From NCBI RefSeq assembly GCF_030013595.1, contig NZ_CP122768.1: DNA of 64,000 nucleotides; one strand, 5' to 3'. Source of the DNA: Escherichia coli. Its GTDB lineage: Bacteria; Pseudomonadota; Gammaproteobacteria; Enterobacterales; Enterobacteriaceae. The position numbers and the translations under genes were made by a program. The notes below the pieces were generated by a model. It was not told the origin of the DNA and ran no database searches. It saw nothing but the letters and a program-made list of their open reading frames with translations. The first letter of the stretch is position 1; every line of letters starts with the position of its first letter. Of this stretch, positions 25,875-31,591 are shown piece after piece.

Positions 25875-27368
25875 TTAGCCCCAGGTTACCGCTTCCGGTT
25901 TATCACCTCTGGCTTTCATTAATGAATCATTATCAATATCGGCTTTATACTTTAAGAACTTACCATACATTTGTTTTTCAATGTCTGGATTTTTACCTAT
26001 CTGATTAATGGTCTCAAAACGATCGGTTTTGAGGTTGTATAGATACTTTGGCTTATTGTTACGATCGATGATCATTTTCCAGTCACCATCACGTATCGCC
26101 CATTCGTCGGTTGGATCATCCTGGAATGGCATGTCAATTCCGAAGATTAATGGCTTTTCACGTTTTAGCGCCTTGTTCTCAAGGACAGGAACCAACGATT
26201 CGCCATCAAAAGTCCGGTCCGTCGGTAATTTGAAGTTCATCATTTTCGCCAGCGTAGGCATCCAGTCCAGACCATAAACAGGCGTATCTGAAACCATTCC
26301 CTTTGGAAGATGCTTTCCGTATTTAATAATCGCCGGAACACGGATGCCGCCTTCCCAGAGATTATCCTTGCGACCACGTAATCCATCAGTTTCCCCTGCC
26401 AAATTCAGTTCATAAACTTTACGTGCTTCACGGGTTACTGGGCCGTTATCACTGGTAAAAATAACGATGGTGTTATCTTCTTCACCCATCGCTTTGATTT
26501 TATCCAGTACTTTTCCAACCTGAGCATCCAGATAACTGATGTTGGCATAATATTCTCCTGGACCACGCCAGGGTTTATCCGCCCAGTCGCCATAAAATAA
26601 ATCAGGATGCTGCTTCTGATATTCGCTCATATATTGTGAGTACATGTCGAGGTATTTTTTGGGCGAAGCCAGGGGACTGTGCACTTCGGTAAAAGCGACA
26701 TAAAGGAAGAAAGGCTTACTGTCCTTTTTGTTATCCAACCAGTTGACGACTTCCGAACTGACATACTCACCACTCATTTTATCGGCACGAGGTGTGGGTT
26801 GCCCGTTACGCAACCAGCCCGTTGGATAGACCATGCCAAAACGGGGACGCTCCTTCGCATTATCCAGAGTAGCGTCGGTAACAAAACCCGCCGTATTAAC
26901 CAGTGAGTAATCAAAGCCCATATCTTTTGCCTGCGGCTGATCGGTGCGATCGCCGCCTGCATTCAGATGCAGCTTACCCATCATGGCCGTGTCGTACCCT
27001 TGCGCTTTGAGTAGATTAGCAATCGTGAGTTCATTACGCCCTAATGCCACATCTTTTCCCGTTGGGATCCATGAGCGTATGCCGGTACGAAATGGCATCC
27101 GCCCCGTTAATAACCCCGCCCGCGAAGGAGAACTTAAGGGAGCTGGTGCATAGTAGTCAGTAAATTTGACGCCCTCCTGGGCAAGCCTGTCAATATTGGG
27201 GGTTTTAACGATCTGATGTCCATATGTTGCTAAATCACCATAGCCTAAATCATCCGCCATAATGATGACTAAATTGGGTTGTTTAGTCTCGGCAGCTACG
27301 ACTGGATTAAAAGCATTCCCTGTGCAAACTGCAAGGCCGATCAAACTGGCCATTAATGTTTTCTGCAT
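25875..27368 (-). CDS. Periplasmic sulfatase, Ser-type (alkaline-phosphatase superfamily)
   Basis: Start placed at MQKTLMASLIGLAVCTGNA (signal peptide); sulfatase motifs LVIIMADDLGYGDL and S-S-P-S-R-AGLLTGR (27120-27134) with Ser at the formylglycine position. Confidence 0.8.
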   Translation of the reverse strand: MQKTLMASLIGLAVCTGNAFNPVVAAETKQPNLVIIMADDLGYGDLATYGHQIVKTPNIDRLAQEGVKFTDYYAPAPLSSPSRAGLLTGRMPFRTGIRSWIPTGKDVALGRNELTIANLLKAQGYDTAMMGKLHLNAGGDRTDQPQAKDMGFDYSLVNTAGFVTDATLDNAKERPRFGMVYPTGWLRNGQPTPRADKMSGEYVSSEVVNWLDNKKDSKPFFLYVAFTEVHSPLASPKKYLDMYSQYMSEYQKQHPDLFYGDWADKPWRGPGEYYANISYLDAQVGKVLDKIKAMGEEDNTIVIFTSDNGPVTREARKVYELNLAGETDGLRGRKDNLWEGGIRVPAIIKYGKHLPKGMVSDTPVYGLDWMPTLAKMMNFKLPTDRTFDGESLVPVLENKALKREKPLIFGIDMPFQDDPTDEWAIRDGDWKMIIDRNNKPKYLYNLKTDRFETINQIGKNPDIEKQMYGKFLKYKADIDNDSLMKARGDKPEAVTWG

Positions 27369-27387
27369 AATTATTCCCTGATGAAAA

Positions 27388-28149
27388 TTAGAAATCATAA
27401 CCAAGCATATAAATCATTTGATCGCCAAAACCATCGTAGCCCAACTTATTATCGAAATAACGCCACGTCACACTGGCTTTCCAGCGAGGATAGAACTTCC
27501 AGGCCACTGTTAAACCGCCATTTAGCCCATTCCGACCAAATTGTTGTTCCGCATAGGCATCATTTCTGTCCAGTTCTATTTCATTCCAGTTAGATAAAAC
27601 AAATTTTTCGTCAAATAACGTAAAAGGTAATACTGCTGTCCAGCCAACAACATAACCATTCCAGCCATTTGTTTGTCCATATTTGGCTGAGACGTAGTCT
27701 CCAGATTGATTATGTAATCCAATATACGGTTTAAAAAACCCCCATGAACCATTCCTGCCGAGGTAGCCCAAACCATAAAACATATCAAGATCGTCACCCC
27801 ATGAGTTATCCCATTGACCATAGATCTTGCCAAAGAAAGTCATATTGGAGTCAAAGAGTCTGACATGTGTCATAGCAGAAACGGTATGATTACGCCCCGC
27901 TACGGCATGGTTAAGCACATTGCTTTCATAAAATGAGTAAAACTCGGCTTCTTTAAAATTCACACCAAAGTCCGCAGTCACTTTCCATACTTCACCACGA
28001 TGAGTGTTAACGAAGCCACTATTCCAGTCAGCATAACCTGCATTTATTGAGCCAAAGGAACCTTTATATTCTAATGAAGAATATGCAGGAAGGTGATAGA
28101 AAATCGTTGTCAGGGCACACGCAATAAGAAGCCGTCTTTTGGCAGACAT
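27388..28149 (-). CDS. Outer-membrane channel, Tsx/OmpK-like family
   Basis: 253 aa, signal peptide, Trp/Tyr/Gly-rich beta-barrel composition, C-terminal ...MLGYDF resembling the Tsx terminus ...VGYNF; immediately upstream of the sulfatase. Confidence 0.6.
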   Translation of the reverse strand: MSAKRRLLIACALTTIFYHLPAYSSLEYKGSFGSINAGYADWNSGFVNTHRGEVWKVTADFGVNFKEAEFYSFYESNVLNHAVAGRNHTVSAMTHVRLFDSNMTFFGKIYGQWDNSWGDDLDMFYGLGYLGRNGSWGFFKPYIGLHNQSGDYVSAKYGQTNGWNGYVVGWTAVLPFTLFDEKFVLSNWNEIELDRNDAYAEQQFGRNGLNGGLTVAWKFYPRWKASVTWRYFDNKLGYDGFGDQMIYMLGYDF

Positions 28150-28665
28150 ATAATATGAATATGCTCTCCATTCATTGTTTTTATGGTTCCATAGAAATCA
28201 ATACATCAGATAATTCATTTTGATTAAGAACGACTCAGAAAGTATATTTAAAGGTGAATGGCAAAGCGTGATGGAGATCGCAGATTACTTTTACCCCCGG
28301 GTGTGGAGGTATCGTGTTTCAAAAAGTGTGTCTATTTTAAATATCACTCATTGATTTATAGACATTTTTTCCTTATAAAAAAACACTAAATTCTGTACAA
28401 GAATTATTTTGTATCTTCTACTACTTTCTCCAGTAATAACTCACCTTTCAGGCATAACTTAAATCTGCTTGTTCATAATCTCAATTTTTGTAAATGAAAA
28501 GGCACATAAGAGTTAAAATAAACAATGATCTAAAGATTAATTACGCAAAAATGCGAGGCGTCTTCAGGATTAGAATCGATAAAACAGAATGGGTTAAAGA
28601 GAGCGATATAATAGCGGCGGGTGCTTGAGGCTGTCTGTCTCAGGCATTAGCTGAACGGCAGATAG

Positions 28666-28720
28666 AGAAAAGCCCCGAGTGATATTTTACTATCAACCCG
28701 AGGCCCCCTATATGCAGAAC
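28666..28720 (-). ncRNA. sokC: sokC antisense RNA (type I antitoxin)
   Basis: Placed by positional correspondence to K-12 sokC overlapping the mokC start; not independently verified by structure. Confidence 0.4.
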
Positions 28721-28921
28721 ACATGTAGAGTGCCTCTTACTGACCGTAAGGTCAAGGAGAAGAGAGCAATGAAGCAGCATAAGGCGATGATTGTCGCCCT
28801 GATCGTCATCTGTATCACCGCCGTAGTGGCGGCGCTGGTAACGAGAAAAGACCTCTGTGAGGTTCACATCCGAACTGGCCAGACGGAGGTTGCTGTTTTC
28901 ACGGCTTACGAATCCGAGTAA
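28712..28921 (+). CDS. mokC: mokC, overlapping regulatory reading frame of hokC
   Basis: 69-aa frame MQNTCRVPLTDRKVKEKRA... ending at the hokC stop. Confidence 0.7.
   Translation: MQNTCRVPLTDRKVKEKRAMKQHKAMIVALIVICITAVVAALVTRKDLCEVHIRTGQTEVAVFTAYESE
28769..28921 (+). CDS. hokC: Hok-family membrane toxin HokC (Gef)
   Basis: 50-aa MKQHKAMIVALIVICITAVVAALVTRKDLCEVHIRTGQTEVAVFTAYESE, a Hok-family sequence. Confidence 0.85.
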   Translation: MKQHKAMIVALIVICITAVVAALVTRKDLCEVHIRTGQTEVAVFTAYESE

Positions 28922-28931
28922 GAGCAACGGC

Positions 28932-30293
28932 GGGGAGTGATCCCATAAGCGCTAACTTAAGGGTTGAACCATCTGAAGAATGCGACGCCTCGGTGCCTCG
29001 TTAAGACGATGCCTCGCGTTCTTCAATTGCGTTTTGTAGGCTGTCAGGGATACTGTCCCACGAATGGCCACCTGTAAGCTCCAGATGACCATTTTTGTTA
29101 TTCTCCACAACGAGTTAGTTCTTCTTTTCGGATCCGGCACTTCTGGGGGGAAATCCAGCGATGGCTGGATTATGTCGTCAATTAAAAATGCGGCGAGTAG
29201 ATTAGCAAATATCCACGCTTTCGCGAGTTCAGGTTCCTTTGCACGCAAAGCATCCAGGTGCAGCAAACTTTTGAGCCGCTTAAAAGCCAGTTCAATTTGC
29301 CATCGCAGACGGTAACAATCAGCCACTTGCTCTGCTGAATATTCATCTTCCGGTAATGATGTTAGCAATAGCACATGGCCCGCTGCTTCCAGCGTTTCCG
29401 CCTGAACTACTCGTCCTTTTCGACGATTCTCGCTGAGCAGTCGGGTTTTACTGATTAATGCTTTTTCGGGAGGAAGTGATACGGCAATGAGACGTGCCGG
29501 AAAGGGAGCTCCGGCTTTTTTATTACCTGAATTGCCTATCATTACAGTGGTTTCACCGTTCTTACCGCAATCCAGCCCGCGCAGAAAACCCATCATGTCA
29601 AAGCGCATTCCTTCTGCAGTTAACCAGCGCAATCCTCGCCAGTGAACCCGGACGATATAATCAGCTTCTCCAAAAGCAAGTGAGCGGATACATTCGGGAC
29701 GCGAACCGAATCCCCGGTCAGCAATGCGTATCTCGTCTGCCGTTTGCGCAAATCGGTCCAGCCGTTCAGCGTCTCTGCTGTCGGTTAGCTCAAAATCAGT
29801 GAACTGACAGGTATGAGGATCATATCCCATATGTAGTCGCCATTCAGCGCTGCCGCCCCCGGGCGCACTGATTGCTGTTCCATCGACAAGACGCAATCTC
29901 TTTCCGCTTGTACAACCCGTAACTGCGGCGCGTACAGCAAGTGTTTGTGCGGCAAGTATGCCAAACCAGTCGGCGGCATTCCGCAGCCGCTTCAGGAGAG
30001 CCACGTCAGATAATGTTGCAACGTCATGGAGCTGAGCCCATGCAGTGACTTCACGTAATGACATCCCCCCGGGGCCGTAAGCCAGCCCCAGACGTAGCAG
30101 AGTTGCAGCATCACGAATTTCGCGGCGGCGGGTTAGAGCCCCGGCATTACGTGCCGAAGTATCCAGTTCTTCGGGCTTACCAATATGGGCCAGAATTGCT
30201 GACCAGTTATCGTGAGAGTAATTCATCGGCACGTTAAATCATATCAGGCGTAATACCACAACCCTTAAGTTAGCGCTTATGGGAGTGATCCCC
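28932..30293. mobile_element. IS186 (IS4 family) insertion sequence, boundaries approximate (about +/-10 bp)
   Basis: Terminal inverted repeats GGGGAGTGATCCCATAAGCGCTAACTTAAGGGTTG (28932-28966) and reverse complement (30259-30293) flank one transposase ORF; about 10 bp after the hokC stop. Confidence 0.85.
28952..30226 (-). CDS. insL: IS186 transposase (IS4 family DDE), C-terminus variant relative to K-12 InsL
   Basis: MNYSHDNWSAILAHIGKPEELD...; Y-x2-R-x3-E-x6-K motif (YRLRWQIELAFKRLK) present; ORF runs 63 aa past DFPP. Confidence 0.75.
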   Translation of the reverse strand: MNYSHDNWSAILAHIGKPEELDTSARNAGALTRRREIRDAATLLRLGLAYGPGGMSLREVTAWAQLHDVATLSDVALLKRLRNAADWFGILAAQTLAVRAAVTGCTSGKRLRLVDGTAISAPGGGSAEWRLHMGYDPHTCQFTDFELTDSRDAERLDRFAQTADEIRIADRGFGSRPECIRSLAFGEADYIVRVHWRGLRWLTAEGMRFDMMGFLRGLDCGKNGETTVMIGNSGNKKAGAPFPARLIAVSLPPEKALISKTRLLSENRRKGRVVQAETLEAAGHVLLLTSLPEDEYSAEQVADCYRLRWQIELAFKRLKSLLHLDALRAKEPELAKAWIFANLLAAFLIDDIIQPSLDFPPEVPDPKRRTNSLWRITKMVIWSLQVAIRGTVSLTAYKTQLKNARHRLNEAPRRRILQMVQPLS

Positions 30294-31503: not shown

Positions 31504-31591
31504 CTTTTTTAAATTGCCCCTAGATGAATGCACGGGCGGAGAGGAAATTCCCCTTCGCCCGTGTCAGTATAATTACCCGTTTATAGGGCGA

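Follow-up and report, generated by a model that had tools for sequence, protein, structure and literature searches.

The stretch of Escherichia coli DNA analyzed here, 64,000 nucleotides of contig NZ_CP122768.1 (assembly GCF_030013595.1; hereafter the window), carries a complete copy of the insertion sequence (IS) IS186 whose transposase gene has a run of six Cs (C6) where reference copies have seven (C7). The window copy consequently encodes one uninterrupted protein of 424 amino acids (aa) rather than the familiar 370-aa InsL. The six-C run fuses the core in frame with a conserved C-terminal domain. In standard IS186 and many related IS4-family elements this domain lies in the +1 frame, and comparison of the junction across the family suggests that they probably reach it by hairpin-driven slippage. 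We extend this to a broader proposition, which we hold with equal measures of belief and doubt, that IS186 and a phylum-spanning clade of the IS4 family make full-length transposase only via hairpin-stimulated slippage, the 370-aa InsL being a truncated by-product and possibly a regulator, and the alleles labeled "frameshifted" being constitutively active.

A single C separates the window copy from IS186 of K-12

On the plus strand the run is G6 at positions 29145-29150, corresponding to C6 on the coding strand, which is read GAT TTC CCC CCA GAA GTG. After ...SLDFPP the fused open reading frame (ORF) continues as EVPDPKRRTNSLWR... for 63 aa and stops at a TAG inside the terminal inverted repeat, with SLDFPPEVPDPK as the peptide that spans the junction of core and extension. 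In the K-12 reference genome (NC_000913.3), all three IS186 copies (IS186A, IS186B, and IS186C, with insL1-3) carry C7 and a 370-aa ORF ending in DFPPRSAGSEKKN. Over the 1338 bp of the element, that one C is the sole difference between the window copy and those of K-12: sequence, 23-bp inverted repeats, and the dnaJ/hokC site and orientation of IS186A are the same, but with one C fewer the window copy has a 424-aa ORF instead of one of 370 aa. The Prokaryotic Genome Annotation Pipeline (PGAP) names the K-12 copies "IS4-like element IS421 family transposase."

An earlier reading of the window (the original prediction) had given the 370-aa C terminus of InsL, had described a 63-aa continuation of the frame to the end of the element, and had ascribed the difference to a one-nucleotide indel in the homopolymer. 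These observations hold. The terminus it gave is that of all three K-12 copies; the 424-aa ORF does end in the inverted repeat; the other frame of the window after the run reads P-RSAGSEKKN-stop, just as a one-base shift was said to give; and the indel is the only difference in an alignment in which the reference copies have seven Cs, not six. The same reading treated the 370-aa protein as standard and the longer one as exceptional, an order that the family comparison below reverses: the extension is the conserved, ancestral C-terminal domain, and it is the standard C7 element that needs a change of frame. As to the base call in the window, it may be a slippage variant, an alternative-frame form, or a sequencing error, as first proposed.

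The extension corresponds to a conserved C-terminal domain

Homology searches with the 424-aa protein returned relatives of two kinds. Close relatives, 60-71% identical and about 364 aa long, stop at the same ...PP position; distant relatives, 40-43% identical and 425-442 aa long, are uninterrupted and align to the very end of the query. When the DNA of the short relatives was inspected, the missing domain was found in the +1 frame right after ...TCT CCC CCC TGA. A frame of 63 codons would stay open by chance in about 5% of cases by our estimate, and this explanation was rejected because the extension is homologous to the C termini of the distant relatives and is therefore not chance read-through.

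To place the junction in the family, a scan of one genome per species was performed, yielding 79 loci that span Proteobacteria, Bacillota, Chloroflexota, Verrucomicrobiota, Planctomycetota, Acidobacteriota, and others; with 7 more from protein look-ups, 86 loci were scored with hidden Markov models (HMMs), one for the core and one for the C-terminal domain. An initial version of the latter left 19 loci without a domain, several of which were reassigned by a rebuilt, unfiltered HMM together with manual reading of the frames. The domain lies in the +1 frame relative to the core at 58 loci (51 unique junctions), in frame with the core at 13 (12 unique junctions), and in +2 at 1 locus (1 unique junction). 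The shift point of the 58 loci is the same as in K-12. Downstream of the run, BLOSUM62 scores between K-12 and its relatives were 53-141 when both were read in +1, compared to 14-69 for the other frame pairs. Among 30 conceptual full-length proteins with 33-68% identity, residues W374, R375, R413, and R415 are invariant. The extension is predicted to form two helices, residues 373-389 and 394-408. Pfam holds no family for it and gave only a sub-threshold match to E2F_TDP, and a sequence-profile search of solved structures returned nothing useful. When a library of 1.8 billion proteins was searched with the domain, 129 of the best 150 matching proteins were stand-alone ORFs of at most 160 aa, the result expected from gene callers for a domain in another frame. 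Altogether, the sequence comparisons show that the 63-aa extension is the real, conserved C-terminal domain of the family across the IS186-like clade of IS4-family elements.

The C terminus of Tn5 transposase is a dimerization helix. By analogy with it, the C-terminal helices of IS186 may play the same role, and, given their conservation as well, they are probably needed for activity. Identity to the Tn5 transposase (IS50, IS4 family; PDB 1mm8) is 12%; Tn5 has one ORF and is regulated by an N-terminally truncated inhibitor, unlike the arrangement proposed here for IS186.

Could the 370-aa protein nevertheless be a complete, working transposase, with no recoding and a downstream domain that is vestigial or separately translated? 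Databases and PGAP treat this form as intact and the long form as frameshifted, and the NCBIfam IS4 model ends near residue 350. Yet the +1-frame domain is open in 58 loci and keeps its invariant residues across phyla, no conserved start codon precedes the invariant WR (the first ATG in E. coli falls after it), and uninterrupted homologues have the domain fused to the core. We therefore consider this explanation very improbable.

A hairpin and a pyrimidine tract mark the junction

At the position aligned with DFPP of IS186, the +1 loci carry a tract of the form T(n)C(4-8), which is T3C7 in E. coli, T4C6 in Escherichia albertii, and T1C6, T2C5, or T5C5 elsewhere. The pyrimidine tract measures 9-11 nucleotides, about the length of the RNA-DNA hybrid, at 40 of 48 unique loci and is exactly T5C5 at nine; the base after the run is T in 47 of the 48. 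No such run is present in the long-standing in-frame lineages (Pseudovibrio, a group of Acetobacteraceae, and Anaerolineae). Between E. albertii (L012, 2539-2589) and E. coli (L001, 5104-5154), the change from C to T that turns T3C7 into T4C6 preserves both the 10-nucleotide tract and the frame arrangement.

The E. coli hairpin has a minimum free energy of -10.8 kcal/mol and a z score of -4.3, and none of 200 shuffled sequences was as stable. In 42 of 49 loci, the 3' end of the hairpin lies 7-11 nucleotides before the last C. Hairpin stability exceeded that of windows from the same ORF, falling in the top decile at 17 of 48 loci (Kolmogorov-Smirnov P = 1.7e-4). Covariation was counted on 19 sequences that share the hairpin register of E. 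coli: the inner 5 bp are paired in all 19, and compensatory changes occur at 6 of 8 pairs, a level of covariation reached by none of 500 shuffles. Pairing was 79.6% at the true register, compared to 27-51% in slid controls. The sequence of the stem varies between subfamilies with pairing retained. RNAalifold predicted no structure from a 26-sequence alignment in which hairpin registers were mixed. The C6 copy of the window retains both the hairpin and the tract intact.

A model of RNA polymerase slippage and its rivals

We propose, as the most likely explanation, that in a standard C7 element the nascent hairpin would make RNA polymerase slip forward on the T/C tract, so that a fraction of the mRNAs, one C short, would encode the full 424-aa transposase. 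Unslipped mRNA would yield the truncated 370-aa protein without the helices expected for synapsis or dimerization, and recoding of this kind would keep active transposase scarce. The C6 allele would then be the DNA-level equivalent of the slipped transcript, with the full-length protein made constitutively. Under this proposal the frame change is presumably supplied by RNA polymerase rather than the ribosome, the 370-aa form may be inactive or regulatory, and C6 copies may be hyperactive. K-12 strains carrying C7 copies do transpose IS186 (PMC3045373), and transposition in a strain with only C7 copies fits low-level recoding.

Other fused alleles that keep the hairpin and the tract were found. 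The fused copy P0067 equals a +1 relative minus one C, that of a Bacillota metagenome-assembled genome equals a +1 relative minus one T, and that of Paracoccus aminovorans equals a +1 relative minus the T after the run. The Paracoccus element is multicopy, and fused alleles can therefore propagate.

The frame could instead change on the ribosome, by a +1 programmed frameshift in which peptidyl-tRNA-Pro moves from CCC to CCN while a slow codon (UGA, or the rare AGA in E. coli) occupies the A site. The zero-frame codon on which the run ends is always CCC, with T or A as the next base at every +1 locus. Of 48 unique loci, 14 have TGA as the following codon and 1 has AGA, the codon present in E. 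coli and E. albertii. A CCC_UGA site causes +1 shifting of 15% in pheL of E. coli, and Listeria phages use such a site as well (PMC5009743). Some members of the IS186 clade share with the +1 sites of prfB, Listeria phage tsh, and pheL a CCC followed by UGA or AGA and a product in the +1 frame. Several features nevertheless favor the polymerase. A slow A-site codon or A-site stop, as in the prfB/CCC_UGA type, is not conserved in the clade: only those 14 of 48 loci have a zero-frame stop following the run, and in most loci an ordinary sense codon (TGG, TGT/TGC, TAC/TAT, or TCN) stands there. A hairpin immediately 5' of the shift site, in a terminator-like geometry, is the stimulator that the clade conserves. 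One subgroup, from Rhizobium and Ensifer, needs a shift in the opposite direction or of two nucleotides, and variable shift direction within a transposase family is a criterion for transcriptional realignment (PMC3711429). Finally, no IS element with +1 ribosomal frameshifting is known (PMC5009743). A ribosomal origin of the frame change thus appears unlikely to us.

The Rhizobium/Ensifer subgroup comprises seven species (L053, L059, L061, L062, L066, L077, and L081; junction near L053:2557) in which the domain is in +2. Its junction reads GAC TCT CTC CCC CTG and is preceded by a strong, bulged 10-bp hairpin, CCGGCCCTCG-ATCC-CGAGGcGCCGG; a 2-nucleotide deletion on the CU repeat or a 1-nucleotide insertion would be needed to reach the domain.

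It was also considered whether the run serves as a DNA contingency (phase-variation) switch, C7 being OFF and C6 ON, with transposition depending on rare replication slippage. Length polymorphism among E. coli copies (C6, C7, and C8) and the fused alleles in several lineages would suit such a switch. However, the homopolymer of most relatives is no longer than C4-C6, set in a mixed T/C tract, and DNA would not slip often at this length; a conserved hairpin with compensatory changes has no role in a switch of this kind; and C7 is found almost everywhere, including genomes in which many copies have transposed recently. We regard phase variation as quite improbable, and slippage by RNA polymerase remains the preferred explanation.

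Some points weigh against polymerase slippage. We infer both the slipped transcripts and the 424-aa product of C7 copies from sequence. The E. coli signal departs from the T5C5 pattern, having T3C7 as its tract and an A instead of a T behind the run. A +1 shift of the ribosome at CCC_UGA or CCC_AGA is credible too. Lastly, about one-fifth of the +1 loci, here called the SPWGY subgroup, show no persuasive hairpin upstream, and their shift site is placed only approximately.

Members of the SPWGY subgroup (L037, L043, L048, L060, L071, L079, and L082-L090) keep the motif T(3-7)C(3-5)TGGGG(A/C/G)T(A/T)C, which reads SPWGY/F in frame 0 and PPG(D/A/G)(T/S) in frame +1; in several of them the upstream hairpin is weak or absent. 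At L079, L082, L083, L086, L087, and L089, the zero-frame stop (GCG TGA) overlaps the +1 codons for Trp-Arg (TGG CGT GA), so that translation of the short product stops right at the beginning of the domain's conserved part.

Comparison with known recoding systems

The closest parallel is an IS630-family element of Roseiflexus, in which a stem-loop directly 5' of T5C5, followed by T, makes the RNA polymerases of E. coli and yeast drop one C (PMC5009743; PMC6211511); this slippage was shown experimentally and is required for the transposase of the element (PMC5009743). In both systems a T(n)C(n) tract some 10 nucleotides long, usually with T next, is immediately preceded by a stable hairpin, and both need a 1-nucleotide deletion in the mRNA to enter the downstream frame, a deletion that the window copy has in its DNA. 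They differ in what is joined, since IS186 links a catalytic core to a C-terminal domain, whereas the IS630 element links a helix-turn-helix (HTH) to a catalytic domain. They differ also in the tract, which varies in the IS186 clade (T3C7 in E. coli, and T1C6, T2C5, or T5C5), and in that slippage is predicted for IS186.

The exact 26-nucleotide Roseiflexus-type signal, GCGGGCGCAAGCCCGCTTTTTCCCCC, was found in IS630-like elements on more than 120 metagenome contigs (L091-L210), many of them from soil, and T follows the tract in 100 of 120 copies; the family of such elements is therefore far wider than the single Roseiflexus genome. These elements were tried as possible relatives of IS186 and rejected: HMMs of the IS186 core and C-terminal domain gave no match on 80 IS630-type loci, and the elements encode IS630-type HTH and DDE proteins without similarity to IS186. 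Given this lack of similarity, the IS186 clade is an independent family with the same kind of signal.

As proposed for IS186, the elements IS1, IS3, IS5, and IS630 use a low-abundance trans-frame fusion (OrfAB) as the active transposase and make a shorter zero-frame product (OrfA). There, the fusion partners are a DNA-binding OrfA and a catalytic OrfB, and most of the shifts are -1 and occur on A-rich sites; in IS186, by contrast, the catalytic core comes first and gains no more than a 63-aa tail. A stated hallmark of the IS4 family is the absence of a frameshift in the transposase gene (PMC2266710). The C6 copy of the window, with its one ORF, fits this hallmark; reference IS186 and 58 related loci have the domain in +1. 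A 2016 review of recoding names only the IS1, IS3, IS5, and IS630 families (PMC5009743). In the full-text literature we found no description of recoding for IS186 or for the IS4 family; ISfinder was outside this search, and an earlier mention is possible.

C6 is a minority allele whose status in the window is in doubt

The length of the run was surveyed by BLAST with probes of 81-83 nucleotides centered on it in 5426 complete E. coli genomes. Among the 2720 records with IS186, one or more C7 copies are present in 2593, C6 copies in 145, and C8 copies in 41. Matches over at least 80% of the IS186 query were obtained for 2693 E. coli records. C6 is thus a sporadic minority allele in E. coli. The exact 424-aa ORF is present on 130 contigs, from megabase-scale to very short, and twice in some genomes, and the 370-aa form is present on at least 1000 contigs. 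In PGAP annotation, every single-ORF C6 copy is a "frameshifted" pseudogene, and the 370-aa C7 form counts as intact (L004 and L213-L216).

Clonal inheritance of C6 within lineages was ruled out, since related assemblies have it in different copies. Among K-12 derivatives, C6 is at IS186A in CP032667 and DTU-1 and at IS186C in ER1709; among O104:H4 strains, it is at the entD-hokE copy in 2011C-3493 and at a tetR-merR copy in FDAARGOS_349. In 2011C-3493 (L215; NC_018658.1, 3814764-3820101), two IS186 copies lie about 700 bp apart, each adjoining a hokE gene, one being C6 and the other an intact C7.

This distribution fits miscalled homopolymers and frequent recent replication slippage alike. 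That the window copy is in truth C7, its C6 a homopolymer miscall by sequencing or assembly, is a possibility to which we assign a little less than an even chance, and it is compatible with the conclusion on recoding in the family. The low counts of C6 and C8 next to C7, and the finding of C6 in different copies among assemblies of one clone or lineage, are what miscalling would produce; many of the genomes carrying C6 are megabase-scale long-read assemblies, and homopolymer error rates climb steeply with run length (PMC3045373). On the other hand, the exact 424-aa ORF occurs in 95 index blocks with no contig of 2 kb or more, and some genomes have it at two loci; equivalent fused alleles exist and propagate in other genera, and a C7 run is also a plausible site for true replication slippage.

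Implications for IS186 biology and annotation

Should hairpin-stimulated slippage be true of IS186, it would be the first recoding event in the IS4 family, which would lose its no-frameshift hallmark, and a second, independent instance of a mechanism demonstrated to date in only one IS630 element, from Roseiflexus. The active transposase in E. coli K-12 would then be a protein other than the textbook 370-aa InsL. The clade would offer a widespread second slippage family that is directly testable in E. coli with its own RNA polymerase. The PGAP labels would be the wrong way round with respect to coding capacity, with the fused form called a pseudogene and the truncated form intact. The annotation of the C-terminal domain is affected as well, the domain being called as hundreds of orphan mini-ORFs. 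In addition, C6 alleles may represent hyperactive IS186; this bears on the instability of production strains, in which IS186 inserts frequently.

Architecture and surroundings of the element in the window

Features of the window copy are listed in Table 1. The 23-bp terminal inverted repeat, CATAAGCGCTAACTTAAGGGTTG, has exactly two occurrences within the window, and the ends of the element, CAT...AA..TAA, agree with the consensus of the IS231 subgroup (PMC2266710). The direct repeat that flanks the element is 11-12 bp long, 100% identical in its 12-nucleotide version, and fits the range of about 10-13 bp for target duplications of IS186 and the IS4 family. The transposase ORF runs from the ATG at 30226 to the TAG at 28954-28952 and encodes 424 aa from this ATG or 426 aa from an upstream GTG. 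The fused protein matches Pfam DDE_Tnp_1 (E = 2.4e-26) and the NCBIfam IS4 model NF033592 (132.7 bits, where the cut-off is 115). It has the Y-(2)-R-(3)-E-(6)-K signature, with Y305, R308, and K319 invariant and E312 nearly so in 30 sequences.

Table 1. Coordinates of IS186 features in the window
Feature	Position	Strand	Remarks
Complete IS186	28944..30281	-	1338 bp; ends set at the 23-bp inverted repeats
Terminal inverted repeat, 3' end of transposase gene	28944..28966	+	Encloses the stop codon of the long ORF
Terminal inverted repeat, 5' end of transposase gene	30259..30281	-	
Target-site duplication, left copy	28933..28943	.	GGGAGTGATCC(C); boundary with inverted repeat ambiguous by 1 nucleotide
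Target-site duplication, right copy	30282..30292	.	
Fused transposase ORF	28952..30226	-	424 codons plus TAG, single frame
Codons 1-361	29144..30226	-	N-terminal region and DDE/YREK catalytic core; common to the 370-aa InsL of K-12
RNA hairpin	29152..29171	-	AAUCCAGC-CAUC-GCUGGAUU; directly 5' of the run
Pyrimidine tract	29145..29153	-	T3C6 (T3C7 in reference IS186), including G6 at 29145-29150; proposed slippage site
Codons 362-424, conserved C-terminal domain	28955..29143	-	SLWR ... AIxG ... LxEPPRxR; +1 frame in reference IS186
TAA ending the 370-aa zero-frame product under C7	29115..29117	-	Out of frame in the window copy

IS186 lies between hokC/sok and dnaJ in the window, at the same site and in the same orientation as IS186A of K-12. 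In the collection searched, the genomes with the closest flanks (L211 and L212; 99.3-99.7% identical to the window) lack IS186 between mokC and dnaJ, and its presence in the window at the IS186A site reflects either recurrent insertion at a hot spot or an old polymorphism. Between nhaA and hokC, positions 24501-28149 hold three genes that are absent from this place in K-12, encoding an IS1/IS1595-type zinc-binding-domain protein, a sulfatase-family protein, and an OmpK-like outer-membrane protein; this stretch is covered in about 1270 of 5426 E. coli genomes. Two small RNAs near the element matched Rfam, namely, the sok antitoxin RNA adjoining hokC (28619-28771; 118.8 bits) and tpke11 between dnaJ and dnaK (31504-31581; 69.6 bits).

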